The notes: a model not told the origin generated them from the sequence alone. Shown: positions 26,341 to 43,369, numbered from the stretch's first letter. The stretch: 64,000 nucleotides of DNA from Escherichia coli (GCF_024223415.1 NZ_CP100500.1); one strand, 5' to 3'. Numbers and translations: made by a program.

Positions 26341-27744
26341 TTGAGAATGCCGCGCACTGTAACACATAATCCGGATAGCCCCAATAATGACGATGTTTTA
26401 GCCGCTTCTGAAAAATGGGACGCCTGTAAACCCCCCTATACCAGCGCACACATGAAAATCTGTGTTGCTGCCGCCAAAATCATCCTCGCTGCTTCCGGCG
26501 TGGCTCGCCGTTCCAAATACGAAAAAGAGAACTATCTCCGTATCGATTTCAGCAAAGCCGGTAAGGTTACATTTTACGCCGAGTTTCCAAAAAAGATGGG
26601 CCTCAAAGGTAAAAAGCTCGGCGAGTGGCCGGAGCTCGCTATCCAGCTGGCGCGCGAAAAAGCACTAGGTATGGCTGACGGTGGACTGCGGGCAGAGTCC
26701 GTACATGCAGCGCTGGAAATGTACCGGGATGACCTCAAAGCCAAAGTAGCCCGTCAGAAGCTGAGCCCGGACAGTTTCACAACCTATGGGGTGCGTATCG
26801 ACCGGATTAAATCAACGTTCGGCGAGCGCGAGGTGTTCAGCGACGTAACATACAGTCGGCTGGTGGAAGTGCTGGACGAGTGGATCGCCACTCGCTCGAA
26901 CAATAACGCCCTGGAGTTGTTTGCCGAGCTCCGTCGGTTCTGGAAGTTCTGCGCACCTACTCTTTGCAACGGCCGCAATGTTGCCGCCAGTCTGCCAGAT
27001 GATTATGTTTCCTCCCGCGTACAGAAACCCACCCCCACACGGCTTTTTACCGATATTGAGTCAATCGCCCGGCTCTGGCTCAATGTTGCCGCCTGCACCT
27101 CTGTACACCAGAAGAATGCTGTTCGCTTCATGATCATCACCGGAGTTCGTCCGATTAATGTCCATAACCTGCGCTGGGACTACGTTCACGAGGAGGTTGG
27201 TGAAATTGTTTATCCGGAAGGGGTTATCGGCATGCGAGGGGCTATGAAAACACAAAAGGCTTTCCGCCTGCCGATAACGCCTGAGATCCGGCGGATTATC
27301 GACGAGCAGAAAGCCTGGCGTGATTCAGTTCCTGAGTGCAACAGGGATTATGTATTTTTGCAGCCACGTGATCCAATGCAGCCATTTTCAAAACGATCAC
27401 TGGATAAGCTGGTGAAAACATACAGCCCGGACGGGGCTGTAAAAGGAATAAAACATGATGGGACTGTTAAAGGGAAAGACGGTGCATTTAATACGATGTG
27501 CCGTAAATTCCTTAAGAGCAATGTTATTGCCTTGATGAAGGAAAGAGGCTATTCCCGATCAGACCGAAGGGAAATCAGCCTCCTTTGCCTTCACCACTCC
27601 AGCAAGTCAGATGACCCGATGGCAGAACATTACGACTTTTCTGATGAGATTTTACAGGAAGAGATTGCGTTAAAGCGCGAAGCTTTCGAGGCTCACGAGC
27701 GGAGCATACTTGCGCAGGTGGCATTGCTACGGCGGCGAGGTTAA
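26341..27744 (+). CDS. prophage site-specific recombinase (divergent tyrosine integrase); true start may be internal
   Basis: 467-aa ORF at prophage edge next to an AlpA-like excisionase; C-terminal part shows integrase-like elements (ITGVRP..., ...LHHSSKSDDPMAEHY with candidate catalytic Tyr). Family call by eye only. Confidence 0.6.
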   Translation: MRMPRTVTHNPDSPNNDDVLAASEKWDACKPPYTSAHMKICVAAAKIILAASGVARRSKYEKENYLRIDFSKAGKVTFYAEFPKKMGLKGKKLGEWPELAIQLAREKALGMADGGLRAESVHAALEMYRDDLKAKVARQKLSPDSFTTYGVRIDRIKSTFGEREVFSDVTYSRLVEVLDEWIATRSNNNALELFAELRRFWKFCAPTLCNGRNVAASLPDDYVSSRVQKPTPTRLFTDIESIARLWLNVAACTSVHQKNAVRFMIITGVRPINVHNLRWDYVHEEVGEIVYPEGVIGMRGAMKTQKAFRLPITPEIRRIIDEQKAWRDSVPECNRDYVFLQPRDPMQPFSKRSLDKLVKTYSPDGAVKGIKHDGTVKGKDGAFNTMCRKFLKSNVIALMKERGYSRSDRREISLLCLHHSSKSDDPMAEHYDFSDEILQEEIALKREAFEAHERSILAQVALLRRRG

Positions 27745-27941
27745 TACCGGCTGCGACACTTTTGAATAAAAGCGTCGACATTGCGGCGCTCATAACGAAC
27801 TACTTTTGCACTGAAACGAATTGGTGCCAGGATAGCCCGATGACGATGCTTAATATTCCACTCACATAGCGTTTTCTGTGTAATACCTAACTTTTGGCAT
27901 ACTTCATCCGGGGTGAGTAAATCGTCGGGTTTCTCGCTCAT
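27741..27941 (-). CDS. AlpA/Xis-like excisionase / transcriptional regulator
   Basis: ORF 27741..28139; real start at internal Met (MSEKPDDLLTPDEVCQKLGITQKTLCEWN...), 66 aa; AlpA-type HTH; adjacent to the integrase. Confidence 0.7.
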   Translation of the reverse strand: MSEKPDDLLTPDEVCQKLGITQKTLCEWNIKHRHRAILAPIRFSAKVVRYERRNVDAFIQKCRSRY

Positions 27942-29332
27942 GCTATACCTCTCTTTTTCATGGCATCGAGCAGGATGTCCTGCACTGTTCGTTTTGAGTT
28001 GCGCCGCTCTATCACCATTTCGTCCATAGTGTCGGCGGCGATAATGTGGTGAATGAACACCGGGCGGTTGTGTCCGGCCTGAATCTGCCGGGTTGGCCCG
28101 ATGCGTTCGATAATTTGTTGGTACTGCTCCAGATTCCACCAGTGCGAGAAAAACACCAGTATGTTTCCGCCGTCCTGCATGTTCAGGCCGTGGCCCGCGC
28201 TGGCTGGGTGTGCAAAGAGAACAGGAATCTTTCCGGAATTCCAGTCGCGCAGTGTCTGTGGATCCTGGTCGAGGTGACGACCGCGAGGGAATGCTTTAAG
28301 CAAGCGTTCAAGATCGTGTTTCCAGTGATAAGCAACCAGCACAGGTGCGCCAGCTGCTTCGGTCAGTATGCTGTCCAGCGCTTGTAGTTTGGTGTCATGC
28401 AGTTCTGACCAACTTCCGGTGTCGTCTGTGTATACTGCGCCACTGGCGATTTGCAGACATTTCAGTGTCTTTGCCGCGGCGTTCGGTGCTTCGATGCCTT
28501 CGCCATTCAGCTCGAGGAACATTTCCTTTTCCATTTCACGATACTGCTGACGGGCCTTCGGCGGCATATCCACGCGGATTACGTTATGGATGGGGTCTTT
28601 GATATCGAACCAGTCGGCCGCATCCAGCGAGAGGGTCACATCGGCTAATGCTCGCTGTATTTCACCCTGTGAGTGAGCAAAAGGCTCCAGTTTAGTCCAG
28701 CTCTGTCCCGGAAACTGTATCGAGTTGAACCAGCGTGAGGTAAACGCACCGTAAGTGCGCCCGAGACGTTGCCCCTGGTCCACAAACCACGATTGTCCCC
28801 ACAAATCTACCAGGCCGTTCGGTGCTGGCGTACCGGTGAGATTTATCCAGCGCCGGACATACTTATGCGCCACTTTGCCCAGCGCCGCTGCGCGCTTACC
28901 ACCACCTCGCAGCCGGAAGGATTTTAGCCGGGTGCTTTCATCCGGAATGACAGTAACGAACGGCCATCGTTCTCCCAATTCCTCAACCAGCCAGACAAGG
29001 TTATCGTAGTTGATGGTGAACACGCTTGCGTTGCTGTTCGCCAGCGCTGCAGAGCGCGCTTTGGCGTTACCAACAATCGGCTGCACCTCAATATTACGCA
29101 GATGCCCCCATTTCAGCGCTTCATCCGGCCATGTGTTTGCTGCAACACGTAGCGGCGCGAGGACCAGCGCGGGGCGTGTTTCTGCCCCTGCCATAAAGAG
29201 ATCTTCCAGCGTAGTGAGCGTTGCCACGGTTTTACCCATCCCCATCCCTGCCCAGATGTTGCCGCGCAGGGTTTCGGTTTCGTGGTTGATGATGAGGTCC
29301 TGGTAAGGGCGAGGCGTGAAAATTTGTCCCAT
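27938..29332 (-). CDS. SNF2/DEAD-like superfamily-2 helicase (phage replication/recombination)
   Basis: 464 aa; Walker A (GMGMGKT), DExx-like box (IPDEST), helicase C-terminal region. Confidence 0.7.
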   Translation of the reverse strand: MGQIFTPRPYQDLIINHETETLRGNIWAGMGMGKTVATLTTLEDLFMAGAETRPALVLAPLRVAANTWPDEALKWGHLRNIEVQPIVGNAKARSAALANSNASVFTINYDNLVWLVEELGERWPFVTVIPDESTRLKSFRLRGGGKRAAALGKVAHKYVRRWINLTGTPAPNGLVDLWGQSWFVDQGQRLGRTYGAFTSRWFNSIQFPGQSWTKLEPFAHSQGEIQRALADVTLSLDAADWFDIKDPIHNVIRVDMPPKARQQYREMEKEMFLELNGEGIEAPNAAAKTLKCLQIASGAVYTDDTGSWSELHDTKLQALDSILTEAAGAPVLVAYHWKHDLERLLKAFPRGRHLDQDPQTLRDWNSGKIPVLFAHPASAGHGLNMQDGGNILVFFSHWWNLEQYQQIIERIGPTRQIQAGHNRPVFIHHIIAADTMDEMVIERRNSKRTVQDILLDAMKKRGIA

Positions 29333-29376
29333 AGTATTTTAGCCAGTAGGGCGCGGGATAATCCCGCGCAAGAATG

Positions 29377-30099
29377 TCAGATTAGATCGGCGTAATAGGT
29401 GAAGTTGCCAAACTGCGGATGCCTCCAGCGCTTGCGGTTACCTTTCGGCGGTGTCGATTCGTTTAACAGCTTTTGAGCTGCTTGTTCGATCGCCGGAAGG
29501 TTAACGAGCAATCCCCGAACACCGGTGTCTGAACGTACCGGTATCCTGGCGAAGCCGATCAATTTCCGGCATGTTGAATCAGATAAACCTGTTTTCCATG
29601 CTGCTTTGCTGACGGGGACATATTCACCTTCAACATGAGATAAATTCGCTGGTGCGGCTGGTTGAGAATAGCCAGTTGCATCAAGACAGGCTTTCATTGT
29701 TGCTTCTGCTACGACGCGAGCAAGCTGGACGATGCCGTCGTTGATCGTAATGCTTGGCGCGGGCGCTGCTGATATTTGAACCTGCTCTTTTTCCCTTTCA
29801 AGTTCTTGCCAGCGGTCAACGATTTGTGCAGTGAATTCAGGACAGAGTTGAGCGACTACAACAATGCTATCGCGTCTGCCTTGTTCTCCTTCAAAGTTAT
29901 ATACTTCATCTTTGACTGTGTGGCCTAAGTTATTGATTCTTTCGATAAACGCCGTTGGCGGTTTTCGTATGATATCGCGCTCGACCAGTCTTTCGATGCT
30001 ACGTTTGACGTCACCCGGACGGCTACCTACCAGATCGGCAATCTCCTTATGGGTCATTGAAAGTTGCTTGGTATCGTTTATCAGTGTTAGAGTATTCAT
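29377..30099 (-). CDS. Rha-family phage regulatory protein
   Basis: 240 aa; N-terminus MNTLTLINDTKQLSMTHKEIADLVGSRPGDVKRSIERLV... typical of Rha. Confidence 0.65.
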   Translation of the reverse strand: MNTLTLINDTKQLSMTHKEIADLVGSRPGDVKRSIERLVERDIIRKPPTAFIERINNLGHTVKDEVYNFEGEQGRRDSIVVVAQLCPEFTAQIVDRWQELEREKEQVQISAAPAPSITINDGIVQLARVVAEATMKACLDATGYSQPAAPANLSHVEGEYVPVSKAAWKTGLSDSTCRKLIGFARIPVRSDTGVRGLLVNLPAIEQAAQKLLNESTPPKGNRKRWRHPQFGNFTYYADLI

Positions 30100-30158
30100 G
30101 CTGTATTCTCCATTCAGTTAAAGACGCGCTGATAGTTACCGCTACCAGTGCGTTTTGT

Positions 30159-30416
30159 TTATTCATCCCACGGCTTGTTTGCAGCCTCCCTTGCGGCCTG
30201 CTGCGCAAAATAAATCAATTCAAAAGCTAACTGTTCTCCTTTTTCCAGCGAACTGAGAAGCCTTGCTGTTTCCAGCATGTCCGCGATATACCCGAAAATA
30301 TCTGCCTGATGTAACTGCGTGATCTTGATAGCCATAGCGTTAACCTCGATGGAACCACTGCGGTCCATTTTAGTAAACCACCGTGGTTTATTGATGTCAA
30401 CACCACCGTGGTGCAT
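30159..30416 (-). CDS. hypothetical phage protein (85 aa)
   Basis: ORF only; divergent from the Arc-like gene across a ~30-bp gap. Confidence 0.4.
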   Translation of the reverse strand: MHHGGVDINKPRWFTKMDRSGSIEVNAMAIKITQLHQADIFGYIADMLETARLLSSLEKGEQLAFELIYFAQQAAREAANKPWDE

Positions 30417-30448
30417 ACTTTGAGAATCGAGTTTATGAGGTAGTTACT

Positions 30449-30763
30449 ATGAGTCGTGAAGATGCGCAGATGAAGATCCGTTTACCTGCGGAACTGAAAG
30501 AATTATTGGAGAATGCAGCCCGTGCTAACGGTCGTTCGTTGAATGCAGAGGTGCTTCAACGCTTAAGATCTTCATTTCCTGCAATAAATAAGCTGGAAAG
30601 CCAGAATACTCATGCGTTTTTATATCTACGACAAGCTGAAGGTATGGGGCTTGGACGCGAAGCTGAATCTTTGCTTAATGAGTGGGGCAAAAATATTGAA
30701 AAAAACACAGAACTCTTAGAAAGACTGCATGAACTCGTAGAAAATCGTTTGGGGAAAAAATAA
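30449..30763 (+). CDS. Arc/MetJ-family ribbon-helix-helix DNA-binding protein
   Basis: 104 aa; N-terminal KIRLPAELKELLENAARANGRSLNAEVLQRL matches the Arc-like RHH pattern. Confidence 0.65.
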   Translation: MSREDAQMKIRLPAELKELLENAARANGRSLNAEVLQRLRSSFPAINKLESQNTHAFLYLRQAEGMGLGREAESLLNEWGKNIEKNTELLERLHELVENRLGKK

Positions 30764-30918
30764 TGTACCGTAACGAAATTGTTACTTAAGGTCTTTAGCT
30801 AGCCTGAATAATATTTCTGCATTTACTGAACGCATATTTTTCTTTGCTGTTTTCTTTAACTCCTCCGCTAATGCGCGGGGGATCCGTAATTTAAACTGTA
30901 AGTGCTCATCTGATTTTT

Positions 30919-31188
30919 TCACAATATCCCCTCCAGATTTTTGCTATCCAGCACCACCACGGTAAAGCCCAGTTTTCGCAGACGTTCATGTTCGCGCAAC
31001 TGGTCAGGTCGTGGTGGTTTGCCTGGCGCTTTGCATTCGACAAAGACGATGCGACCGCCGGGTAGCAGGACAATGCGATCCGGTACCGAGCGGCGACCGG
31101 GAGATACGAACTTAAAGGCCACACCGCCAGCTTTTTTCACTTCAGCGACGAGGTGCTTTTCGATAAGGCTTTCACGTTCACAGGCCAT
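30919..31188 (-). CDS. VRR-NUC domain nuclease
   Basis: 89 aa; HLVAEVKKAGG...RIVLLPGGRIVFVECKAPGKPPRPDQ...KLGFTVVVLD matches the VRR-NUC PD-(D/E)xK pattern. Confidence 0.65.
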   Translation of the reverse strand: MACERESLIEKHLVAEVKKAGGVAFKFVSPGRRSVPDRIVLLPGGRIVFVECKAPGKPPRPDQLREHERLRKLGFTVVVLDSKNLEGIL

Positions 31189-31399
31189 CGTCTGCCACCT
31201 TACGTTTTTCGCGTATGTTCTGCATCAGGCAAAAATCAGATCTGCGCTCACTCCATTCCTGATTGAGCGCGTTACGTGACTGGCGGTTGGCTTTGGCCCA
31301 GACCTTTGCTGCCCGATCGTACGCGCCGGACTGCTCAAGGCACAAAGCCTCCCGTGCAGTCTGGTAATAAAGTGGACTGTCCCGGTATTTAAATGACAT
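31178..31399 (-). CDS. hypothetical small phage protein (73 aa)
   Basis: ORF in operon context; overlaps VRR-NUC gene start. Confidence 0.4.
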   Translation of the reverse strand: MSFKYRDSPLYYQTAREALCLEQSGAYDRAAKVWAKANRQSRNALNQEWSERRSDFCLMQNIREKRKVADDGL

Positions 31400-31410
31400 A
31401 TATTTCGATT

Positions 31411-31898
31411 CCTGTAAAAAGCCCCTGACAGTGCAGGGGCGGGATTGATTTGAATTAACGAGGTAAGGCTGGTGGAATGTATTTGCCGATGCGGTCTTCT
31501 ATCGTTGGCAGAATACACATGCTGTCGTTAAAGCGATCGTGCAGTTTGTAGACCAGTTTCGAATCAGCCATTTCAAGCGCTGGCATTAACTGAGTCTGCC
31601 AGATTTCGTTGATGCGCCGGAAGTTATGACAGATCGCACGAAGATTATTAATGAACATTTCCTTCTCTGCGTCAGTGACTTCTGTTTGTGTTTTCTGAAT
31701 ACGCTTTGTGCTGCCGTTCCGGTAAAAGCGTTCCTGCGCAGCGACAGCCTCATCCACAGTCGGATAACAGCCAACGTATACGTTTTTCTCGCCGTCCCAT
31801 GCATAAGCCCGGTACGGATTGTATTTGCTCCGGTGATGGTAAATCATCTTCGGCAGACATTCCCTGTGCGGCGCCAGTATCGTGGAGGACTGCGGAAC
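31411..31898. repeat. ~490-bp direct repeat, copy A (3' part of BRO-N gene + its terminator)
   Basis: Near-identical to 35504..35990 at DNA and protein level (C-terminal 147 aa plus downstream hairpin gcccctgacagtgcaggggc). Confidence 0.85.
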
Positions 31899-32231
31899 GG
31901 CGGTATCTTTCTCGATAAGGTCAAGCACCCAGCGACGAAATTCTTTGGCTACCGGAGTCGTTGCGAATATTGCTACCAGGTGGGCACCGCGCAGGGAGAA
32001 AACTCGCACATCTTTTTCACGTAAGCTATTGTTTATTCCGTTGAACCTCATTTTGAGGTTGATTGACATACCCGGGGTAAACTCATCTGCGTTGCGGTTG
32101 TATATCTGGGTGATTTTATCGCCGCGCGAATACCCCAGCGCAGTAGCCAGCGTTGCGGCGGTGAACCACTGCCTGCCGTTGTGTTCGGTAGTTTCGAGAA
32201 CGTGAGATTTGAATACGAGTTGGGTACTCAT
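31455..32231 (-). CDS. BRO-N domain antirepressor-like protein with C-terminal AP2-like DNA-binding module
   Basis: ORF 31455..32393; probable start at Met55 (MSTQLVFKSHVLETTEHNGRQWFTAATLATALGY..., BRO-N-like). C-terminal ~147 aa (YRAYAWDGEKNVYVGCYPTVDEAVAAQERF, AP2-like) is nearly identical to the C-terminus of ORF 35547..36311. Confidence 0.65.
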   Translation of the reverse strand: MSTQLVFKSHVLETTEHNGRQWFTAATLATALGYSRGDKITQIYNRNADEFTPGMSINLKMRFNGINNSLREKDVRVFSLRGAHLVAIFATTPVAKEFRRWVLDLIEKDTAVPQSSTILAPHRECLPKMIYHHRSKYNPYRAYAWDGEKNVYVGCYPTVDEAVAAQERFYRNGSTKRIQKTQTEVTDAEKEMFINNLRAICHNFRRINEIWQTQLMPALEMADSKLVYKLHDRFNDSMCILPTIEDRIGKYIPPALPR

Positions 32232-32498
32232 AGTTTTATGTCCTTTGCAATATTTTGAATTCACCCCTTTTGAGAGGGCGGTCAGGCGCTCAAAACCGTG
32301 CAAAGTCGGCGGGCGTATTTCCCTTACGGGTATTGTATTAGCCTCACGCCCGACCATTGAATTCTCAATATCGTGGACATAAAAAATCCGCATGTCTGTC
32401 GGGTGCGGTTTCCGCTTTGCAAGGTGTTTTGAGCACCATGACGCGGAATATAGCCCCGTTAACGCGACATTGTCAAACTGAAGAATTTTACGGATAGC

Positions 32499-32540
32499 AA
32501 AAACCCCCGAACTGGTGAGGAACAGGGGTTTTTACTTTAC
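32499..32540. terminator. hairpin terminator downstream of the TIR-like gene; ~40-nt near-identical copy of the host acpS terminator
   Basis: aaaacccccgaactggtgaggaacaggggtttt versus 25203..25235 aaaacccccgaactggtaaggaacgggggtttt; stem and loop both conserved. Confidence 0.6.
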
Positions 32541-32613
32541 TACTGATTTCGCGGTACGCTGATCTCAAACAGACGAGATTATCACCAGACTTGTAAAGTA
32601 AGCAATGGGCGGA

Positions 32614-33357
32614 TTAAGATGAAGCGTTCGCTATCTGAGCGTCGCTGAATGTGAAACCCGCCTGTTTAAGACGCTGGATTAAGCGGGGTACTGTCTCCCG
32701 AACATGGTCATTAAAGTTGAGATAAAGAATACCGGCGGCATCAGAAGGCTGCTCAAGGTGTTGTTTCTGCAGGATGACCACGTTACTGCGACCGAGTGAA
32801 GATAACAGCATCCCCATTTCTAAAACTACGTTTTGGCGTGCCCTGGGCTGGGCTGCTTCCTGGCCGTCTCTTTTGGCGTATCCCACATCATCGGGAGTGA
32901 GGAGAACAATGCCGAAACGCGTCGCTGTCCGTCCCTGACCAATTTCACGTTCAAGCTCTTCAATTATCGTAAGCCCGGTCCCACCGGTATTCTGCAAAAT
33001 AAAATGGTCAGGTAATCCAAGCTTATGAAGAATAAGTTCAAGCTGCTCTTTTGCTACATGATCGTGACCGTGAACGATGAAAATCTTTTTTGCTGGTTCT
33101 TGCATCATGACTGGAGCGTTACCCAGGTGTTCATTAATAATGGCTTCAACCTCAGGTTTTGCCGCTTGTGAACCCTGAATCAAAATCGTTCCGGTGTGGT
33201 AAAGCGTTATGATGGCACCATTACTTAAACGATAACAATCATGACCGGTTTTGTTTTCTTCTCCGGTAACATCAAATCCGGATTCGACTAAAAATTGACG
33301 AAAAGTATCGACAGCGTATGGGTATTTGAGTGCCATTTCATTGAGTTCCTGCATCAT
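32614..33357 (-). CDS. TIR-like domain protein (resembles the 'predicted nucleotide-binding protein containing TIR-like domain' family) with ~80-aa N-terminal domain of unknown function; candidate defence/abortive-infection effector
   Basis: 247 aa. C-terminal region has KIFIVHGHDH...GIVLLTPDD...QPRARQNVVLEMGMLLSSLGRSNVVIL, which I recognise as the signature of bacterial TIR-like (CAP12/Pycsar-effector-type) domains. From memory, not HMM-verified. Confidence 0.5.
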   Translation of the reverse strand: MMQELNEMALKYPYAVDTFRQFLVESGFDVTGEENKTGHDCYRLSNGAIITLYHTGTILIQGSQAAKPEVEAIINEHLGNAPVMMQEPAKKIFIVHGHDHVAKEQLELILHKLGLPDHFILQNTGGTGLTIIEELEREIGQGRTATRFGIVLLTPDDVGYAKRDGQEAAQPRARQNVVLEMGMLLSSLGRSNVVILQKQHLEQPSDAAGILYLNFNDHVRETVPRLIQRLKQAGFTFSDAQIANASS

Positions 33358-33410
33358 TGTGTTCCTGTAAAGTAAGCAATAGTTAACAAAGTTGCAACGA
33401 CAACGATCAC

Positions 33411-35477
33411 CTAATCTTTTCTGTAACGGTACGCCTCGAATCCTCCGGCGTTTAGTGGAATGCTCGTGGCCCAGTCAGGAACGGTTGCCAGTAACTGGCT
33501 GAGATGTTCTGCTGAGTAATCGGGTGAGTCAGGGGCCTCACTTATAATTTCATCGTGTACCGTCAGCACAATGCTGTAACCGGCATCTTCGATAAGCGGC
33601 ATGTTTCCGGCCAGAACGTCGCGGGCGGCCGCCTGGGTGACGTTCTCCACCAGCTTTCCGCCGTAGGTTTTGAGTCGTTGCCATTTACGCGAATAAGAGT
33701 TAACACCCATATAGGTGATATCCCCTTTTTCGATAACCGGAGACGGGTAGCATACAGCGCGTCCGGATGGTAGCTGTATGCGCAGCCACGCGCCATCGCG
33801 GCGGATTTTAAGATAACCGCAATACAATGTTTTTTGCGGTGTGGCGATTGCAGTGCGGACGGTGCGCTCCAGTTCGTACCAGAAATCGCAGGTCGCCGGG
33901 TGCGCCCTGCGCCACAGGCGCTTGAGCGAGTCACATGCGATGAATACACGCTCGGACAGGCCAAAGGTCGACTTACGTTTAACCGATTCGTCGTACCAGC
34001 TTTTCGCCTCGCGGATAACATCGCGGGGAATGTTTGGCAGTGCGGCGTTCGCCAGCTCGTCGAGATCGAGACCGTAAACCAGAGCAAAAGTGATGAAAGC
34101 CGATACACCACCTCCATAACCCAGACCGAGTTCCATGACTTTACCGATCTGACGCATGTGTTTATCAACATCATCTGGTGCAATATCGAAAGCTTTTGCA
34201 TACGCCAGTTTATATAAGTCCGGACCCGTTCCGGCGTCGTACTCTCTGAATGCATTCAGTTTCCATTCTTCTCCCGCCAGCCATGCCAGCATACGGCCTT
34301 CAATGTTCGACAAGTCACTTACCACCAGTTTTTTGCCTGTTGGCGCGATAATGCAGCCACGTAACGCTGAACTGGTTAGTTCCATGATATTGTCAAACAG
34401 CAGGTCTGCACATCCGGCTTTCAGTGCTTCGATGCCTTCGTCTATTTGTTCCTGTTTTAGTGAAGGGCGGGGAAGGTTCTGGGGCTGGAATAGCCGTCCG
34501 GCCCAACGACCGGTACGTGACGCCCCGCAGAACTGTAGCGTACCGCGTAAGCGCCCGTCGTGGCTTACGCCTTTCATCAGTGCCTTGTATTTACTGGTGC
34601 TGGTAGTACTGGCCTGCAGGCGGATAGCCAGCAGTTCTTTCACGGCAGATGGTAAATTGGGGTCGGCAATACGACGTTCCAGAGTACTGCGTTGCATGTC
34701 TGGTAGCTCCACACCGTAGGATTCAACAATGTGCTTAATCAACGCGTCCCGTTGTGTGGCTGCCTGCACTTCGCCATCAGTCATTTCCTGTGTACGCTTT
34801 GCCAGGCGCTTTTGCTCCTGGTCTACCGCTTCGATCGCAGCGCGCGCGAGTTGAATGTCCATGCAGACGCCCCGGTCGTTGATCTGCTGATCACGATGCC
34901 AGAGTGCCAGTTCTGTCCCCTGATAATTCCACTTCGGCAGACGTTTATAGACTTCGCGCATTGCCTCGATATCCAGTCCGGCGTAAGCAACAAAGCGCCG
35001 CCATTCTTCCGGGTGGGTTTTGCTGGTGGCCCGGCGCAGTTTGCTGTTTTTCGGGCGTGGTTTGCACAGTAGCTGAATTAGTGACTTGCCTTCTTTATCC
35101 TTCGCTTTGTCCTGCGGGACGCCCAGCACTTCGCAAAGAGCGCCCAGCGCCCCCGGAAGACCATGCGCCAGCGCCTGCACCATTGTGTCGCGCCAGCGTT
35201 CAGTAGCTGGTGACATGTCTGGCATACAATGACGAAGTATCGTGCGGTCAAAGTGCGAATTGTGCGCCCAAACCTCCACATCCGGGTTTTTGAGTGCGAG
35301 ACGTAATTCCGGGGGGATTTTTTCGCCTGCGGTCAGGTCCCACACCTGCACGGGATCGTTATTGATGGCCCAGGCAAAAAGCATAATTTCAGCGCCTTCT
35401 GCATATGCGTGGGTACCGTTTTTTATCGGTATTTCAGAGAAGGTTTCAAGATCGAGCCAGAGAATGTTTGCAGGCAA
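33411..35477 (-). CDS. family A DNA polymerase with 3'-5' exonuclease domain (phage-type)
   Basis: 688 aa; Exo I motif (LDLETFS), exo motif YAGLDI, polymerase motif B-like ([16 protein letters not shown]), motif C (TVHDEII). Confidence 0.8.
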
Positions 35478-35503
35478 AACAGGACCCTCCGTAAATTAAA
35501 CGG

Positions 35504-35990
35504 CTACAAAAAGCCCCTGACAGTGCAGGGGCGGGATTGATTTGAATTAACGAGGTAAGGCTGGTGGAATGTATCTGCCGATGCGGTCTTCTATGGTCGG
35601 CAGAATGCACATGCTGTCGCTGAAGCGGTCATGCAACTGGTAAACCAGTTTAGAATCCATTTTTTCGAGAGCAGGCATTAACTGCGCCCGCCAGATTTCG
35701 TTGATGCGCCGGAAGTTATGACAGACGGCGCGGAGATTGTTGATGAACATTTCCTTCTCTGCGTCAGTGACTTCTGTCTGTGTTTTCTGAATACGCTTTG
35801 TGCTGCCATTCCGATAGAAGCGTTCCTGAGCAGCAACAGCCTCATCCACGGTTGGATAGCACCCTACGTAAACGCTCTTCTCTCCGTTCCATGCGTAGGC
35901 TCTGTACGGGTTGTATTTGCTCCGGTGATGGTAAACCATCTTCGGCAGACACTCCCTGTGTGGCGCCAGTATCGTGGAGGATTGCTGGTG
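35504..35990. repeat. ~490-bp direct repeat, copy B (3' part of AntA-type gene + its terminator)
   Basis: See copy A. Confidence 0.85.
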
Positions 35991-36311
35991 CAGTTTGCGT
36001 TCGCACTCGATGAAGTATCGGCGGATCTGGCGGCCTTTTTCGTTGCGCTCCACCATCGCCAGTTCTTTGGCCGTGTCGAGGGTGAGGTGGTAGTCCTTAC
36101 AAAGAACATTTTTACGCTTTCCAGTTTTGGAAAACGTTACGATATAATCCTGATTTTCAACGAATTCATAGTCTGCAATTCGTGATGTAATCCACGCTGC
36201 AAACACTTTCCCTACCCCAAGGAATGCGTGCAGATCGCGAGCATTGCAGAGCAGGGTGGTTTCGTTGGCGATAGCGCCGTTGAAAACGGGGATGAGTTGA
36301 GTTGCCATCAC
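35547..36311 (-). CDS. AntA-type antirepressor-like protein with C-terminal AP2-like module (paralogue of 31455..32231)
   Basis: 254 aa; distinct N-terminal domain (NARDLHAFLGVGKVFAAWITSRI...) fused to the same ~147-aa C-terminal module as the BRO-N protein. Confidence 0.65.
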   Translation of the reverse strand: MMATQLIPVFNGAIANETTLLCNARDLHAFLGVGKVFAAWITSRIADYEFVENQDYIVTFSKTGKRKNVLCKDYHLTLDTAKELAMVERNEKGRQIRRYFIECERKLHQQSSTILAPHRECLPKMVYHHRSKYNPYRAYAWNGEKSVYVGCYPTVDEAVAAQERFYRNGSTKRIQKTQTEVTDAEKEMFINNLRAVCHNFRRINEIWRAQLMPALEKMDSKLVYQLHDRFSDSMCILPTIEDRIGRYIPPALPR

Positions 36312-36691
36312 AGTTACCTCTAACGGTGAAATTCACCGCCACCACTGAGTTGCAAATCTCATATGGGTGGCGAACTGACGAGGTTTGCAATACCGGCGTT
36401 AGAGGAAACCGGCGCGCCGAAGCGCCCCCGCCAGCCCGCCATAATGCGAACGTGGCAAAGCTTGCGACAATAAAAAAGACGCTGGCGCGTCTGGTGTCGC
36501 CCCTAACAATTCCGGGTTGCAAATCCCGATCTCCATTTGGGAGATTCGGTGAGCATAAACCGGAAGGGGGCGATGAGTCAATATCGGGGTAGCAGGGCGA
36601 CTGGGTGCTAACCAGAACAATACAGGTAGCTCCGGGCATATTCCCCTTTGCAAAAACACCCGGCGTTTAACCGGGCGTCTGTGAAGCAGGA

Positions 36692-37240
36692 TTAAATCAG
36701 TGCTTCAGCATCAGCACCTTCGCTGATATCGTCGAAATCGTCAGCGCTTGCCACTCCGCCGCCAGCGAATGCATCGCCGTCTCGCAGGAACTGGACTCCG
36801 CCGAGTGAGGCATTAATGCGTTTACCGAAATTATTGTCCTGTGCCCAGATATCGATAACGGCGTTTACATAGCACCCTGCATAGGGACGTCCATCAGCCT
36901 GAGTAAGTGGCGAACGATCGCGATCAAGAACAGCCGGGCGCGCTTTGTTAGCAGCATTCAGGAAGAAATTACCGGGGAAACCTTCATACTCTGCTTTTTC
37001 ATCGCCGTCATGCAGGCACAGATTGAGTTTCTTCTCCAGTTGGTTATAAACAGCCTCCCACTTCTCTCCCCATTTTTCCTTTGCGACCTGCTTCATTGCT
37101 TTACGGATTTCTTCCAGTTGTGGGTGTTCGGGAGACATTAAAAATACAGCGGAGAAACGCGGATCGCCTTCGCCGTTTACAGTTTTAGCTTCAAACAGCG
37201 CAGGAAAAGCCAGACGAACATTGTTCAGCTTCAGTTTCAT
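36692..37240 (-). CDS. phage single-stranded DNA-binding protein (DUF2815-like)
   Basis: 182 aa; MKLKLNNVRLAFPALFEAKTVNGEGDPRFSAVF... pattern typical of phage SSB of this family; acidic C-terminal tail. Confidence 0.6.
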   Translation of the reverse strand: MKLKLNNVRLAFPALFEAKTVNGEGDPRFSAVFLMSPEHPQLEEIRKAMKQVAKEKWGEKWEAVYNQLEKKLNLCLHDGDEKAEYEGFPGNFFLNAANKARPAVLDRDRSPLTQADGRPYAGCYVNAVIDIWAQDNNFGKRINASLGGVQFLRDGDAFAGGGVASADDFDDISEGADAEALI

Positions 37241-37255
37241 TATATGTCTCCTTAA

Positions 37256-38560
37256 TCAGATGAGGTCAGCGGCGAGCGCGTCGTCGGACACGTCATCGAA
37301 ATCATTTACAGGGTTAATATTGAGTGCGGGGCGCGGATCTGAATCAGGAACGACGGTGGGTTTACCGTCCGCTCGTGTTATCAGGGCCTCGACTTTTGGC
37401 CAGCGGCGCGGACTGGCTTTTTTGATGAGTTTTTCTGCTTTGGCAGGGCTAATCAGTTTAAAGTCGAAAACTTCTTCAGTTTTATACCTGAACTGATCCT
37501 TCAGAAGAGCTCGAGCTGCTTCCTCATCACTCCAGGTCCGGTTACCTTGTTTTCCTGTTACCAGTTTAAACCCCGGTACCGTATGCCCGGCATGGAGTTC
37601 ATTGTGAACCCGGTCACGTAGCGCTTTGCAAAAAGACTCAATCAGGTCAACATGGCTGTAAATGTCTGCCAGTTGTTCAGCGGTCAGTAGTGGTACACGC
37701 TTAACGGCATCTGCGAGTTGCTCGCCAACGGGTCTGCTCAGGTCAACGAAGTCGTCCGCAACGGCGTTAAGTCTGGCCTGTGCTTCTGCTGAACACAGCC
37801 CACCTTTTGCTTTACAGAAGAGGCACTGTTTCTCGCCTGGTGTGAAGTTTTCAGGTGGCAGGGTTTCGACGCCTTCGCAATCGGCGATGTTGAACATCAC
37901 GATCACACTGGCGGCAGCTTCCTGCGCCCGTTTGCCGAATGCCTGCAGTTCCTCCACCGTCAGGGACCACTCTGAAACGTGGTTAATCCGCGGCTGGTGG
38001 ATGAACAGGCGCACCGTCTCGAAGTCGTACAGAAGGCTGAACTGCTCGAGCACGCCCAGGGCATACAGCTGCAACTGCTCGTTCTGCTCAGCGTCGACAC
38101 GCACTCCCTTACCGTATTTCAGGTCGTGGATCTGCAGTTCGTTACCCGCGATGATTATGCAGTCGGCAGTTCCGAAAGAGTCTTCCACACCGACGATGTG
38201 GGAGAAGTCTACGCGTTGCTCAACCAGCAGCGTGTTGCCCTGTGCCAGTGACCAGACTGTATCAACATACCGGCCAACGGCTTCGACCATTTCCTCATCC
38301 ACCTGTGGGCCAGATGTATCATCAGGATTTGCGCGAAGGGGGTATGAGCCGAGAAACATAGAAACATTGCATCCGGCGTAGTGTTCCGGGTGACTTTGCC
38401 TGTTTCGCAGGACTTTTTCTGCAAGCGCGTGCGCCGCAGTACCTTCAACAGCAAAGGATGTTTCTTTGTCAGGCTGAGTGGACTCCAGCGCCAGACTGCC
38501 GCTACAACGCATCCATCTGTGGGCGGCTGATGGAGATAATTTTGCATGAACCTCGGGCAT
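37256..38560 (-). CDS. PD-(D/E)xK exonuclease, Cas4/RecB-like (DUF2800-like)
   Basis: 434 aa; nuclease motif (IHDLKYGKG), N-terminal Cys plus C-terminal CxxC cluster ([11 protein letters not shown]) suggests an Fe-S nuclease. Confidence 0.6.
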
Positions 38561-38562
38561 AA

Positions 38563-39486
38563 TTAACCCTCCAGCGCTTTTTCAGCAAGGGCTATCACGT
38601 CTGCGAGTTTATCGTCAGCGACTTCACCGAGTTTTCTGGCTCCCTGTTTTTCCAGAATGGCAATAGCTTCTGCCCGGTAACCGCCTTTTGCAAGCTGGAG
38701 GATCAACCCTTCGGCCTGTTTACGCAGTGCAGCAAAATCGGTCTGTTCGCCAGTATCTTCCACGGCATCACCACCAGTTTCGGTACCGCTTTTTGCTGCG
38801 TCTCTGCGTGCAAATTCTTCCTGCAGCTGAAGGTACTCAACACGGTTGATCTCGATATGGCCTTTTTTCAGCATCTCGTTCAACTTGCGTAAGGTGTGGA
38901 GTTCACTGGCTGCTGTGCCGGATACATTTTTGACGTAAAACGGCCCCGTGCGTTCTCCATCTTTGTTACTGGCCTTTTTCGGCTTAACTTCATCACGCCC
39001 ATCTGCAGGTGCATCAAGTAGCTGCTCGGCAAAAGCACGTCGCTCGCCGATAGTTGGCAGGTCGTCCCAGAACTTAAGAATGTTGCGGGACAGGTCCAGA
39101 AGAGCGGGTTTATGCAGTGCCCTGGCTCGTTTGACGCACTGCAATGTGCTGTCGAGAGCATCAATCTGAACTACTCGTTTATCACCTTCAGCATCACGGT
39201 AAGCAACAGCTCGTTGCAGCATGTCTTCAGTAACAGGGGTAGCTGACGGGTAGAAACCAGCCAGTGCGATAACGTCGCTGAACTCCAGATCATCCAGTGT
39301 CATTACCGCTTTATTTTCAGTTTCATCTGCTGTTTCGGTTGCTGTATCCCGACATTCCTGTACTTGTGAAATGGCGTCAGGATGCATAACAATACCTGAT
39401 GCCATTGTGCGGATAAGACGTTCAAGCAGCACATTATGTTGCGCCAGAAGTTGGTTATTAAGTTCGAGACTGGTTTCTAAGCTCAT
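38563..39486 (-). CDS. hypothetical phage early protein (307 aa)
   Basis: ORF in the leftward early operon; no motif recognised. Confidence 0.45.
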
Positions 39487-39665
39487 ACTGTGGTCCTCGC
39501 TACAAGGAGAATGAAAGTGATGATCAGGCCAAGTGCAGTGGCAACGACCAGACCTGTCATCAAATCGAAGTGTTTACGGCGATAACGGAGAACATCGCGC
39601 CCCGTCAGTCGATGGATGTGTTCAGGTTTCATCGGTTGTATTCCTTTTTTCATATCGGGGAGCAC
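39483..39665 (-). CDS. small membrane protein (60 aa)
   Basis: Single predicted TM helix (LMTGLVVATALGLIITFILLVA); overlaps the stop of the upstream gene. Confidence 0.4.
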   Translation of the reverse strand: MLPDMKKGIQPMKPEHIHRLTGRDVLRYRRKHFDLMTGLVVATALGLIITFILLVARTTV

Positions 39666-40266: not shown

Positions 40267-40890
40267 TTATCTTTTGCGGCGGTAAATACGATGTTCAATC
40301 ATGACCCCTACGATCTGTAAGGGGACATCTGCACTTCGTAGCACGGGATAGTCGGGATTCAGGGGGACCAGTTCAAAATCATCAACGCCGATACCCAACG
40401 GGCGGTATTTTTTGAAAGTGGCCTCATACCCGTTGTTCTTTGCAACGACGAATTCGCCAGGCATGGGGCATAAATCCGGGTCAATTATTACAATATCGCC
40501 TTCCTTAAACTCCGGTTGCATACTGTCACCATCTATCCGCAGGGCGAAGCAGGACTCAGGTACGTCGGAATCCGCGAGAACGTATTCCATATTTCCATCC
40601 ATGTCCGTAGCGTCTTTTGCTTCCGTTAGCGCACCGGCCTGTACGTAACTGAGGATCGGGATGCGGCGGGTACTTATTTCCGCCAGGGGCATTATATTCC
40701 TGCCATTTAAAAGCCAGTCGGGACTGCATTTCAGTGCCTTTGAAAGCTCTATGATGTTGCGGGGCTTCCGGGTCTTTCCGCTTTCAATAGTCTCAATGGA
40801 TTGCTGGCTGACCCCCGCGATTGCTGCAACTTCTGTTTGTGTCATCCCGAGTTCTGTACGGCGTGCTTTAAAGCGTTCTGCAAGTGACAT
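40267..40890 (-). CDS. CI-like prophage repressor (XRE HTH + S24 LexA-like peptidase domain)
   Basis: ORF 40267..40956; start at Met23 (MSLAERFKARRTELGMTQTEVAAIAGVSQQSI...) preceded by AGGGGG RBS; S24 motifs (GDSM...) in C-terminal half; divergent from cro. Confidence 0.85.
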   Translation of the reverse strand: MSLAERFKARRTELGMTQTEVAAIAGVSQQSIETIESGKTRKPRNIIELSKALKCSPDWLLNGRNIMPLAEISTRRIPILSYVQAGALTEAKDATDMDGNMEYVLADSDVPESCFALRIDGDSMQPEFKEGDIVIIDPDLCPMPGEFVVAKNNGYEATFKKYRPLGIGVDDFELVPLNPDYPVLRSADVPLQIVGVMIEHRIYRRKR

Positions 40891-40949
40891 GGTGTACCCC
40901 CTGATTCCTGATTTTTTGCTCTCCCTTATTAATACAATTTTTGTTGTAG

Positions 40950-40978
40950 TTGACAAACATCATTTATTGTCGCTAAAT
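40950..40978 (+). promoter_or_regulatory. PR-like promoter for cro (TTGACA-17 bp-CTAAAT) within the cI/cro operator region
   Basis: Consensus -35 TTGACA with 17-bp spacer and a -10-like hexamer ~30 bp upstream of the cro ATG; flanking short inverted repeats (tacaattt / aaattgta) may be operators. Confidence 0.5.
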
Positions 40979-41006: not shown

Positions 41007-41216
41007 ATGACACTTGCTACCCGAGTAAAAAACCAGCGTAAGGCTCTTGGCCTGACGCAGGTTATGCTGGCAGAACGCACAGGGATTAGCCAGCAGGCCA
41101 TTAACCGCATTGAAAGCGGCCTTATATCCCGTCCCCGTTATCTGCTGGAAATAGCTGTTGCCCTGAACTGCGACCCTAACTGGCTGTTGCATGGTACTCC
41201 CGCGGATAAGACGTAA
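41007..41216 (+). CDS. Cro-like HTH regulator
   Basis: 69 aa; HTH (LGLTQVMLAERTGISQQAINRIESG); divergent from the CI-like gene. Confidence 0.8.
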   Translation: MTLATRVKNQRKALGLTQVMLAERTGISQQAINRIESGLISRPRYLLEIAVALNCDPNWLLHGTPADKT

Positions 41217-41219
41217 CTT

Positions 41220-43364
41220 ATGGCCCAGATCAATCTCTCATACGGCCGGGAACTGGTAGACAACCTTCCTGTGCCCTGTACTGATGCCGATTTTAACCGG
41301 ACATTTAAGCGTGTTAAAAAGTGGGCTCGTGCTATCGGCGCAACCAAACAGGATACAAAAAGCCAGCTTAACGCCAAAAAAGCGCGTCTGCCCTACATCT
41401 GGCACGCAATGAAGGACGTCACCAAAGGTCGTAACGCTGCTAATGCGGGCAACCGTGATGTGCTCTTCATGGATATGGACGGCTGTAACGCGCCTGCATG
41501 GGGCGCTTTACGCGATGCGCTGGCCTGTTTCTCATGTTTCACCTATTCAACGCCAAGTCATCTGCACCCCACTGCAAACGGGGAACATCGCTGGCGTATC
41601 TGCCTGGAGCTGAGTCGCCAGGTCACGCCCGAAGAGTACAAGCGTCTTGGCCTTGCGGTTGAAAACTGGCTGATGGATTGTATCAGCCTGCTGGACGATT
41701 ACACCGTCAAGTGGGACCACAGCGTTTACAACCCGGACCATATGGTTTTTGCCCCTGATGAAAAGGCCATCTTTGAACGTTTTACCGGGGAACCTGTTGA
41801 CGTTGATATCCTGTTGGCCAGCGCACCGGAAGTTACCATCCCTGAAAAAGCATCTTCCACAGACCGCGATGATTTGTCACGCGCTGTCGAACTGAACGGC
41901 ATCAGTCAGGAAACTTTTGACGACCTGCGCGAAGTGATGTGGCATCCGGCTGTACTGGCAGACGCTGAGCCGGGTTGCGGTAAATACCATAGCTGGGCGG
42001 CGATGGGAAATCGTCTGGCATGGTTTAAGGGAACCGACTGGGAAGACGCAGCCCGTCAGCTTTGGGTCGACTGGTCGATAGCGGGTGGTGGCGATGGCAT
42101 CAGCGCTGAACATAAATGGGACAGTAACCAGCTTACCGCCGAACGAACCGGTTACCAGGCCATTTTCGCCCATGCGCAGAAAGCAGGGGTCGCTAACCCC
42201 GCGACCGACCGTATGCGCGGTTTTGTCGCCGGTGCGAATGACTTCGACGAGTTGCCACCGGAAAAACCGGAGCTGCCAAAGTCCAGACCGCACACAGGCG
42301 GCTACGGTAAGCCGGGAAAGTTCATCATTGAAGGGATGGTGCCGCACGGGGTGACCATGCTCTATGGAGCTTCGTCATCGTTCAAATCCTATGGCGTTAT
42401 CTCCATGCTCTGCCGTGTGGCGACGAAAACTCATCGCTGGGGCGGGCGTAACCTCAAAGGTGGCGCTGTTCTGTATGTTGCCGCTGAGGGTGGCAGCTCC
42501 GTTATGCCGCGTGTCGGCGCATGGGCGGATAAGTACAATGACGGTAAGCCACTGGATTTGTTCTACACCCTGCCACTGGCGGTTGATCTCTCTGTCCCCG
42601 CAAACGTCACAAAGATGGTAAACGAGATTAAGCGCATAGCGTACCACACCGGCGAACCTGTCCGGCTTGTGGCCGTCGACACGCTGTCGCAGTCCATGAT
42701 GCAGGGCGAGGAAAACAGCGCCAGTGATGTGGCAAAATTCATGGCGGGCGCAACCAGGGTGTTCACCGAAACGGGCGCAGCGGTGATTATCGTTCACCAC
42801 AGCGGCAAAGACAGCAGTAAGGGGATGCGTGGCTCTTCTGCTGCCTTTGCTAACGCCGATGCGGTCATTCGCGTGGAACGCATCGGCGACGCGGTGAACC
42901 TGATTAACGAGAAACAGCGTACCGGTCCGGTACAGCCGACCCGCGGTTACATGGTACCGACAGTGCAGCTTCCTGACGACGTTATCGCGGCTAACGAAAC
43001 GTACGATGATGAGTATACCAGCACTGAAGGGGAAGTATATGACCCTGTAAGGCTTACCACCGAGCGCGTGTTTGAAGATGCACCAATGGCGGAGATCACC
43101 CCACTGCTGGTGGATAAGGGCGACGGGAATACCAAAGGCAGCAGCGATGAATCCTGGGTATGGGAAAAGCTGGAGGCCTCCGGCGGCAGCATCAACCGTT
43201 CTGCGCTTCGCGAGTTATGGAAGGATGAAACCGATAAAAGTACCGGTCAGTTACGTGCGGTTCTGGGGCGCATGAAAGAGAAGTATTACATCGTTGAGCG
43301 CGACGGCGTAATCAGGGATCCGCTATGCAATGGCGTACCACCTGGAGGGGATGAAATTGCTTAA
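41220..43364 (+). CDS. replication primase-helicase (N-terminal primase-like region + RecA/DnaB-like P-loop ATPase)
   Basis: 714 aa; Walker A-like (YGASSSFKSYG), RecA-like core (VLYVAAEGGSS...VIIVHHSGKD); immediately followed by an iteron-rich region. Confidence 0.7.
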   Translation: MAQINLSYGRELVDNLPVPCTDADFNRTFKRVKKWARAIGATKQDTKSQLNAKKARLPYIWHAMKDVTKGRNAANAGNRDVLFMDMDGCNAPAWGALRDALACFSCFTYSTPSHLHPTANGEHRWRICLELSRQVTPEEYKRLGLAVENWLMDCISLLDDYTVKWDHSVYNPDHMVFAPDEKAIFERFTGEPVDVDILLASAPEVTIPEKASSTDRDDLSRAVELNGISQETFDDLREVMWHPAVLADAEPGCGKYHSWAAMGNRLAWFKGTDWEDAARQLWVDWSIAGGGDGISAEHKWDSNQLTAERTGYQAIFAHAQKAGVANPATDRMRGFVAGANDFDELPPEKPELPKSRPHTGGYGKPGKFIIEGMVPHGVTMLYGASSSFKSYGVISMLCRVATKTHRWGGRNLKGGAVLYVAAEGGSSVMPRVGAWADKYNDGKPLDLFYTLPLAVDLSVPANVTKMVNEIKRIAYHTGEPVRLVAVDTLSQSMMQGEENSASDVAKFMAGATRVFTETGAAVIIVHHSGKDSSKGMRGSSAAFANADAVIRVERIGDAVNLINEKQRTGPVQPTRGYMVPTVQLPDDVIAANETYDDEYTSTEGEVYDPVRLTTERVFEDAPMAEITPLLVDKGDGNTKGSSDESWVWEKLEASGGSINRSALRELWKDETDKSTGQLRAVLGRMKEKYYIVERDGVIRDPLCNGVPPGGDEIA

Positions 43365-43369
43365 TTTTA

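Follow-up and report, generated by a model that had tools for sequence, protein, structure and literature searches.

How does a prophage with the body of phage lambda replicate its DNA when the lambda replication genes are missing? The question is raised by a 64,000-nucleotide stretch of the Escherichia coli chromosome (GCF_024223415.1, NZ_CP100500.1; referred to here as the window), in which a lambdoid prophage carries a run of minus-strand open reading frames (ORFs) at 27938-38560. [quoted passage not shown] The domain assignments themselves are upheld by Pfam, PHROG, PDB and motif evidence, and domain searches place five of the six genes inside the interval; the primase-helicase is real but is encoded on the plus strand at 41220-43364, 2.7 kb outside it. 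Replication genes make up ~53% of the 10.6-kb interval, the other ~47% being cargo and regulators. On the evidence set out below, the region probably represents the early module, for replication and recombination, of an APSE-1/BPP-1/YeP4/Xfas53-type temperate phage, joined by recombination to a genuine lambda late module, integrated next to yfhL and acting as a phage replisome that bypasses the host initiator, helicase, primase and DNA polymerase III (Pol III).

Core replication genes of the leftward block

Profile searches were carried out on the ORFs spanning 26.3-53.7 kb of the window. Every core ORF in the window was found to be full-length, with its catalytic motifs intact. The gene at 33411-35477 (minus strand) encodes a family A DNA polymerase of the Leu762 type with a 3'-5' exonuclease domain (Pfam DNA_pol_A 1.8e-14, 53.9 bits against a cut-off of 34.3; phrog_17 1.3e-127). 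Exonuclease motifs I-III read DLET, NSHFD and YAGLD and lie within the N-terminal 180 residues, with additional matches to the exonuclease families phrog_192 and phrog_403. Alignment to the Taq and E. coli DNA polymerase I (Pol I) chains identified motif A (DLSNIEGR), motif B and motif C (VHDE); the protein is divergent from Pol I but complete, its best PDB E-value being 2e-6. In the HMMER alignment a leucine of motif B stands opposite Taq Phe667 (the F of TINFGVLYG) and E. coli Phe762. Translation starts at a TTG codon, preceded by a GGAGGG ribosome-binding site. Polymerases with Leu762 have been described from temperate phages, with RecB-like and SNF2-like genes as neighbours (Schmidt 2014; Nasko 2018, PMC6302109), and the polymerase found here fits the Leu762 group I of family A by its motif B residue, its RecB-like and SNF2-like neighbours and the temperate lifestyle.

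The SSB gene (36692-37240, minus strand) specifies an annealing protein of the T7 gp2.5/Enc34 ORF6 type, with a Pfam Enc34_ssDNA-bd match of 1.4e-44 (152 bits, cut-off 26), a phrog_112 match of 2e-57 and PDB matches to 5odj (2.6e-16), 4jg2 and 4klk. It ends in an acidic C-terminal tail, ADDFDDISEGADAEALI. The adjacent gene at 37256-38560 (minus strand) encodes a DUF2800 RecB/Cas4-like PD-(D/E)XK exonuclease, also with an acidic tail (Pfam DUF2800 3.6e-104; PDDEXK_1 2e-07, 31.7 bits against a cut-off of 22; phrog_69 1e-130). The nuclease motifs D133, D146-L-K148 and Q161xxxY165 are accompanied by four cysteines (C19 and C246-x2-C249-x6-C256), and a PDB sequence search returned no match for this protein. 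On these sequence features the label Cas4-like is fair for fold and motifs, not for any association with CRISPR: no cas genes were seen among the ORFs scanned, so the exonuclease does not qualify as Cas4 proper, and iron-sulfur binding is putative.

The SNF2-family helicase (27938-29332, minus strand) matches Pfam SNF2-rel_dom (4e-12) together with Helicase_C, as well as phrog_62 (1.2e-156). Both lobes pass their curated thresholds, SNF2-rel_dom at 46.3 bits (cut-off 24.9) and Helicase_C at 23.6 bits (cut-off 23.5), and solved Snf2/Rad54 chains in the PDB are matched in sequence at 5e-13. The VRR-NUC nuclease (30919-31188, minus strand) is recognised by the endonuclease family phrog_93 (7.6e-32) and by an E9...PD37...E51-x-K53 motif, and orthologues that are 93-97% identical carry the VRR-NUC name in related prophages. 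NCBIfam gave no family-level assignment for the primase-helicase, the exonuclease or the VRR-NUC protein.

Primase-helicase, candidate origin and a shared acidic motif

The product of the 41220-43364 gene fuses an AEP primase and a PriCT-2 region to a RepA-like (AAA_25) helicase (AAA_25 3.9e-28). Its N-terminal 345 residues contain conserved FMDMDG, SHLH and KWDHS motifs. Both an AEP fold with DxD, SxH and D motifs and a P-loop RepA/AAA_25 domain are thus present in one polypeptide, whose homologues are named PriCT-2 or 'primase C-terminal'. Against PDB sequences the helicase half gave only a marginal match to RepA (E 0.037). The arrangement resembles the RepB' and RepA functions of RSF1010 combined in a single fusion, and this AEP plus RepA-like variant was found in just one of 5,426 complete E. 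coli genomes. The same AEP N-terminal domain is fused to AAA_25 or to VapE, depending on the genome. Within this one prophage lineage the helicase-primase that follows cro was observed to be exchangeable, being AAA_25/RepA-like here and of the VapE or DUF5906 type in relatives.

Directly 3' of the primase-helicase stop codon lies an unstranded segment (43365-43660) that looks non-coding on reading. It consists of an AT-rich stretch, followed by seven exact GCGCAACA iterons and then a G/C hairpin. They lie in both orientations inside a span of 175 bp; 11 copies are present in the entire window, where 4.6 would be expected. The AT-rich segment (43340-43460) has a GC content of 24-29% and contains ATTTGCAT repeats. 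One candidate ORF at this place, orf114 (43330-43674), is doubtful as a gene: it yields only sub-threshold Pfam matches and coincides with the iteron/AT-rich region. Neither it nor 'P4', annotated at the same place in APSE-1, is probably a gene.

A GCGCAACA cluster is also present in E. coli F1022, the sole relative fetched that has the same type of helicase. Other repeats, again in both orientations, occupy the same position elsewhere: CTGTACCAACCT behind the VapE-type gene of E. coli ECONIH2, AGGTGACGG behind the DUF5906-type gene of phage 606R2, and GGTTGTTAC behind gene P3 of APSE-1. Across four other loci (iteron stretches at L007 17915-18089, L002 20228-20410, L001 14097-14360 and L005 3306-3605) the iteron sequence varies together with the helicase type. 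This co-variation fits an initiator with its cognate origin, and 43365-43660 is therefore proposed as the replication origin and the primase-helicase as a combined initiator, helicase and primase. Initiator and origin thus seem to be exchanged together, as a single cassette.

A second feature joins the primase-helicase to the leftward block. An acidic DDFDD(I/V/L) motif is common to the SSB tail (36692-36745), the exonuclease tail (37256-37310) and the linker between the primase and helicase halves (42237-42254), where it takes the form NDFDEL. In its strict form the motif occurs only three times, in these three proteins, among 34,634 residues from all open frames of at least 100 residues in the window. 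Phages 606R2 and APSE-1 keep the acidic tail on both SSB and exonuclease; BPP-1 keeps it on the SSB, and has the near-match DDFADV on the exonuclease. The linker motif recurs in the VapE-type protein of ECONIH2, with a near-match (VDAFDDL) in APSE-1 P3, and is absent from the DUF5906-type proteins and from BPP-1 Bbp29. The T7 proteins gp2.5 and gp4 dock on the polymerase through their acidic tails. By analogy, the motif is probably a shared docking peptide.

An APSE/BPP-1-type early module in a lambdoid prophage

On the left, 26 kb of the window belong to the E. coli chromosome (nadB to acpS) and are 99.4% identical to strain A16. The left prophage end adjoins host yfhL and is marked by a tyrosine integrase (26341-27744, plus strand; Pfam Phage_integrase 7.8e-07, phrog_1 8e-26), which shares 99% identity with the integrases found at this yfhL site in E. 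coli ECONIH2, GF4 and F1022. No tRNA gene was found in the window. The integrase is followed by an excisionase/AlpA-like helix-turn-helix (HTH) protein (27741-27941, minus strand; HTH_17, phrog_4745, phrog_66), whose counterpart in relatives is annotated as a 201-bp HTH/AlpA gene.

That the prophage is lambdoid, with lambda-like head, tail and lysis genes, is confirmed. It encodes a CI-type repressor with HTH and S24 peptidase domains (40267-40956, minus strand; Pfam Peptidase_S24 8e-21, HTH_3 1.4e-12), a Cro-type HTH regulator (41007-41216, plus strand; Pfam HTH_3 3.4e-15) and a Q antiterminator, with which the late region begins (44346-44813, plus strand; Pfam Phage_antitermQ 2.5e-50). On reading of the sequence, the true start of cI is likely the ATG at 40892. 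Lysozyme and an Rz spanin are present, and the DNA at ~51.8-64 kb is ~94% identical to head and tail genes of phage 21 and of several records named Lambda. The element thus has both the CI/Cro/Q regulation and the terminase, portal, capsid and tail genes of the lambda type.

The lambda early genes present a different picture. In tblastn searches of the whole window no counterparts of O, P, exo, bet and gam were found (best E 0.1, 4.6, 2.2, 0.58 and 0.88, respectively), and cII and N were without a match; CI was the sole lambda early protein queried to give one (E 3e-17). The first-pass annotation had placed the module in the stead of O/P. O and P are indeed absent, and their position after cro is taken by the primase-helicase and candidate origin only (41220-43660), but the 27938-38560 interval itself sits elsewhere: the block with polymerase, SSB, exonuclease, VRR-NUC and SNF2 genes lies in the leftward operon between cI and xis-int, the position of lambda exo-bet-gam. 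We infer that the early module stands in for both the lambda O/P-ori region and lambda Red.

Comparison with sequenced phages, as the first-pass annotation had suggested, revealed the same gene order and 44-73% protein identity in APSE-1 and BPP-1. By tblastn, the identities to APSE-1 and BPP-1 are 73 and 65% for SNF2 (P41/Bbp47), 66 and 54% for VRR-NUC (P44/Bbp43), 65 and 69% for the polymerase (PolA), 55 and 67% for the SSB, and 60 and 44% for the exonuclease. In APSE-1 the order is int, xis, SNF2 P41, regulator P42, Ant P43, VRR-NUC P44, PolA P45, SSB P50, exonuclease P51 and P53, with cI and, on the other strand, cro followed by helicase-primase P3 and Q, all as found here. P3 shares 47% identity with the present primase in its N-terminal primase domain, and an iteron cluster follows directly behind the P3 gene. 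APSE-1 differs in the VapE-type helicase of P3, the iteron sequence, the cargo and an HNH insertion in the polymerase. BPP-1 likewise has the leftward order exonuclease Bbp38, SSB Bbp40, PolA Bbp42, endonuclease Bbp43, helicase Bbp47, xis and int. On its other side, however, cro is separated from the primase by a methylase and Q is not annotated, as opposed to cro, primase-helicase and Q here, and the BPP-1 primase Bbp29 is unrelated to our primase-helicase.

The polymerase is 73% identical in protein sequence to that of Yersinia YeP4-6, 69% to those of Bordetella BPP-1, BMP-1 and BIP-1, 65% to those of Hamiltonella APSE phages, 64% to that of Acinetobacter phage 4316 and 57% to those of BcepC6B and Xfas53. 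More distant full-length relatives are held by ~1,600 phage records. Temperate phages are among these, and so are Kagunavirus, Jersey-like and Chi-like siphoviruses, three groups taken as virulent. An early module common to APSE, BPP-1, the Bcep phages, Xfas53 and YeP4, with its synteny, was described by Boyd et al. 2021 (PMC8579659), who also present APSE as a mosaic in which this module is combined with P22-like late genes.

Within E. coli, the polymerase gene was detected in 158 of 5,426 complete genomes (~3%), always on the chromosome. Core genes are 83-97% identical to those of prophages at the yfhL site, which share the integration site described here, and to those of the induced coliphages vB_EcoM-606R2, 689R2 and 611R5; over a 12-kb region the three phages show 91% DNA identity across 53% of the length. 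We count this presence in induced phage genomes as a sign that the module works. A literature search for 'vB_EcoM-606R2' found no paper. F1022 has the primase-helicase, candidate origin and lambda-type head genes seen here. In contrast, the helicase-primase of most E. coli relatives is of the VapE or DUF5906 type instead of the AAA_25 type and is accompanied by other iterons, and 606R2, named as a myovirus, has a different late module.

The mosaicism claimed for the prophage therefore stands, the same early module being joined to lambda late genes here and in F1022, to another late module in 606R2, to P22-like genes in APSE and to podovirus genes in BPP-1; BPP-1, BMP-1, BIP-1, YeP4-6, Xfas53 and BcepC6B are all podoviruses with late genes unrelated to those in the window. 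Since F1022 has the same arrangement, the lambda-late mosaic is not unique and is one more combination of a known module.

Two further systems bear comparison. The T7 replisome comprises gp5 polymerase, gp4 primase-helicase, gp2.5 SSB, gp6 exonuclease and gp3 endonuclease. Compared with T7, the primase here is AEP-type rather than Toprim, the helicase RepA-like and the exonuclease RecB/Cas4-like rather than FEN-like; the phage is temperate and CI/Cro-controlled, and no thioredoxin-binding or other processivity device was identified in it. The Enc34 module consists of a primase, polymerase, VRR-NUC, helicase and DUF2815 SSB, the last characterised structurally and biochemically (PMC5686142). 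T7 and Enc34 ('Nazgul-like') thus offer the same functional parts as found here, and the SSB is a structural relative of gp2.5 through Enc34 ORF6 (PMC5686142). In the Eru regions of lambdoid Shiga toxin (Stx) phages, as here, O/P after cro is replaced by helicase and primase genes (PMC8044961). The Eru1-3 sets (DEAD helicase, Toprim and DUF1367; replication protein and AAA helicase; replication protein and DnaB; PMC8044961) differ in domain content from the present module, a comparison made by the domain lists in that paper only. The phrase 'DNA polymerase' does not occur in its main text (PMC8044961).

Between the core genes lie genes that differ from one relative to the next. A Rha/Ant-like HTH regulator (29377-30099, minus strand; phrog_63 2.5e-21) occupies a variable slot and is present in some relatives only. 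It is followed by an Arc-like ribbon-helix-helix cargo protein (30449-30763, plus strand; Pfam Arc 3.1e-12), a small PerC/ANR-family regulator (31178-31399, minus strand; phrog_2227 2.7e-23; Pfam PerC 3e-4, below cut-off), whose relatives are annotated as ANR family, and a Bro-N anti-repressor-like moron (31455-32393, minus strand; Pfam Bro-N 6e-08) with a promoter-like site at 32476-32447 (11/12 matches) and a terminator at 31440-31421. Between this cassette and the polymerase gene lies a TIR-domain protein (32614-33357, minus strand; Pfam CAP12-PCTIR_TIR, the CAP12/Pycsar TIR, 5.6e-31; PADLOC PDC-S35 8.9e-107), a candidate single-gene defence system again seen in some relatives only. No paper was found by a literature search for 'PDC-S35'. 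An AntA anti-repressor-like moron (35547-36311, minus strand; Pfam AntA 9.6e-25) on the far side of the polymerase gene has a terminator (35532-35513) identical to the Bro-N terminator hairpin. The neighbouring orf157 (36166-36639) is doubtful as a gene, as it has no family match, overlaps the AntA start, contains promoter/terminator-like sequence and is unannotated in E. coli VL40.

The 3' ends of the Bro-N and AntA cassettes, terminators included, form a 300-nt direct repeat of 90% identity (31416-31715 and 35508-35807) on either side of the polymerase and TIR genes. If the two copies recombined, 4.1 kb including both genes would be lost. VL40 has the two cassettes in exchanged positions, a split polymerase gene and an integrase interrupted by IS1. 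E. coli relatives keep the core genes and differ in the gaps, which hold TIR, SIR2, Dcm methyltransferase, HNH, DUF6338, DUF4406, Bro, Ant and Rha genes in varied combinations; SIR2, Dcm, HNH and DUF6338, found in slots around the polymerase, are among the slot contents that set 606R2 and other relatives apart. Among the genes interspersed with the core, Bro, Ant, Rha, Arc and TIR are cargo that can be exchanged, and such variable slots give prophages a further site for defence genes.

The remaining early genes were also assigned where possible. A conserved protein of 307 residues (38563-39486, minus strand; phrog_6784 5e-170), whose stop codon overlaps the exonuclease start, had no Pfam, NCBIfam or PADLOC match, and its AlphaFold2 (AF2) model, with a predicted local distance difference test score (pLDDT) of 78.9, gave no convincing fold match; only its C-terminal ~55 residues, a three-helix part, are kept in APSE-1 and BPP-1. 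The leftward block is headed by a small conserved ORF (39483-39665, minus strand; phrog_11981 1e-34), with 92-97% identity among E. coli relatives. A CoiA-like nuclease-domain protein (43661-44386, plus strand; Pfam CoiA_nuc 2e-14, CoiA_N 4e-13) is encoded between the candidate origin and Q. A gene for it, annotated CoiA, occurs also in F1022 and in none of the other relatives fetched. Just 3' of Q, a DUF1327 protein of 311 residues is encoded at 45408-46343. In Stx phages the toxin genes are found at the position just downstream of Q.

A putative phage replisome and its alternatives

From the observed gene content, motifs, synteny and sequence features, and by homology to known systems, a mechanism can be proposed. 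Inactivation of CI would release rightward transcription and with it the production of Cro and of the primase-helicase, with its AEP primase and RepA-like hexameric helicase. The latter would recognise the GCGCAACA iterons 3' of its own gene, open the AT-rich DNA, unwind it and lay primers. Leftward transcription would supply a T7-like set, in which the Leu762 polymerase, with proofreading, would extend the primers while the gp2.5/Enc34-type SSB coats and anneals single strands. The DUF2800 exonuclease may resect ends and possibly remove primers, leading to recombination-dependent replication and concatemers; VRR-NUC may cut branched intermediates ahead of packaging, and the SNF2 motor may remodel or branch-migrate forks. 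The DDFDD(I/V/L) peptide would probably dock SSB, exonuclease and primase-helicase on a common partner, of which the polymerase is the likeliest. The phage would still depend on its host for ligase, topoisomerases and dNTPs. Neither PurZ, DpdA nor anything similar turned up among the ORFs scanned, although no search was aimed at a Z-genome or modified-base system.

A more far-reaching version of this scheme can be put forward only tentatively. The polymerase block and the initiator block could be two separately exchangeable cassettes, linked by the acidic DDFDD(I/V/L) peptide on SSB, exonuclease and AEP-type primase-helicases, which would dock on one site of the Leu762 polymerase; the gaps between core genes would then be sites where defence and anti-repressor genes are inserted as cargo (TIR, SIR2, Dcm, Bro, Ant). 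If so, one polymerase module would work with unrelated helicase domains (RepA-like, VapE), each with its own iteron origin.

Several points weigh against a phage replisome of this kind, or limit its reach. Iteron binding by the primase-helicase, the docking role of the acidic motif, and the dispensability of host replication proteins, both here and in the close relatives, are steps that we infer from homology. The VRR_NUC Pfam score is 19.9 bits, under the curated cut-off of 23.8. The Leu762 substitution has been tied to polymerases that are slower, if more accurate (PMC6302109). The window stops within tail genes, short of the prophage's right end, and what is said of intactness holds for the part inside it. 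No ligase, sliding clamp or other processivity factor, topoisomerase or 5'-3' flap nuclease was seen among the ORFs scanned, and complete host independence is excluded on this ground. The first-pass description of replication as self-contained and host-independent was thus overstated, although for the steps otherwise carried out by DnaA, DnaB, DnaC, DnaG and Pol III a bypass by the module is plausible from its predicted gene functions.

Might the leftward block instead serve mainly recombination and repair, as a substitute for lambda Red, with host Pol III replicating the phage in bulk and the phage polymerase filling gaps? Its location at exo-bet-gam is what this would predict, and the block brings together an exonuclease, a gp2.5-type annealing SSB, a junction nuclease and an SNF2 motor; the slower, more accurate synthesis of Leu762 enzymes (PMC6302109) and the failure to find a processivity factor among the ORFs scanned point in the same direction. 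We nevertheless consider this account unlikely, given that the polymerase family is maintained full-length in ~1,600 phage records from both siphoviruses (Kagunavirus, Jersey-like, Chi-like) and temperate phages, that the polymerase and exonuclease motifs are intact, and that SSB and primase-helicase share a motif, as in the T7 replisome. The same intactness bears on whether the prophage is a decaying remnant whose module is out of use. Such decay could be read from a window that ends inside tail genes, from the direct repeat that could delete PolA and TIR, and from the split polymerase and IS1-disrupted integrase of VL40. With all core ORFs of the window full-length and catalytically intact in sequence, with integrase, xis, cI, cro, Q, lysis, terminase, portal and capsid genes present, and with near-identical modules in induced phage genomes, this is very unlikely.

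A role of the helicase and nuclease genes chiefly in defence or counter-defence, rather than replication, is more improbable still. The SNF2 protein does match the DpdE and ZorD defence models weakly (1e-12 to 1e-13), and a TIR defence candidate lies in the same operon. However, the DpdE and ZorD matches are confined to the generic SNF2 ATPase core, with scores far under the NCBIfam cut-offs. The genes in question, unlike the TIR gene with its variable occurrence as cargo, are core members of a replication module whose synteny extends to distant phages. The counter-defence role that the first-pass annotation had allowed for these genes is therefore without support; it is the embedded TIR gene that is a candidate for defence. 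An early replication-recombination module of the APSE/BPP-1 type, acting as a phage replisome, remains the explanation that we favour.

The module, its synteny and its joining to varied late modules are already published, and close E. coli relatives are present in RefSeq and GenBank. The prophage is a real but ordinary case of phage mosaicism, and current concepts are unchanged by these results. What is added here is modest: a candidate origin with initiator-specific iterons, a rare AEP plus RepA-like primase-helicase, a shared acidic motif and the cargo slots. Of these, the candidate origin with its initiator/iteron pairing provides testable parts for a replicon independent of the host replisome, and the shared acidic motif a testable hypothesis for replisome assembly. 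The main value lies in annotation: a lambda-bodied E. coli prophage can use an APSE/BPP-1-type module instead of O/P and Red. In ~3% of complete E. coli genomes, predictions derived from lambda for induction, for host-factor dependence and for control that targets replication would not apply.

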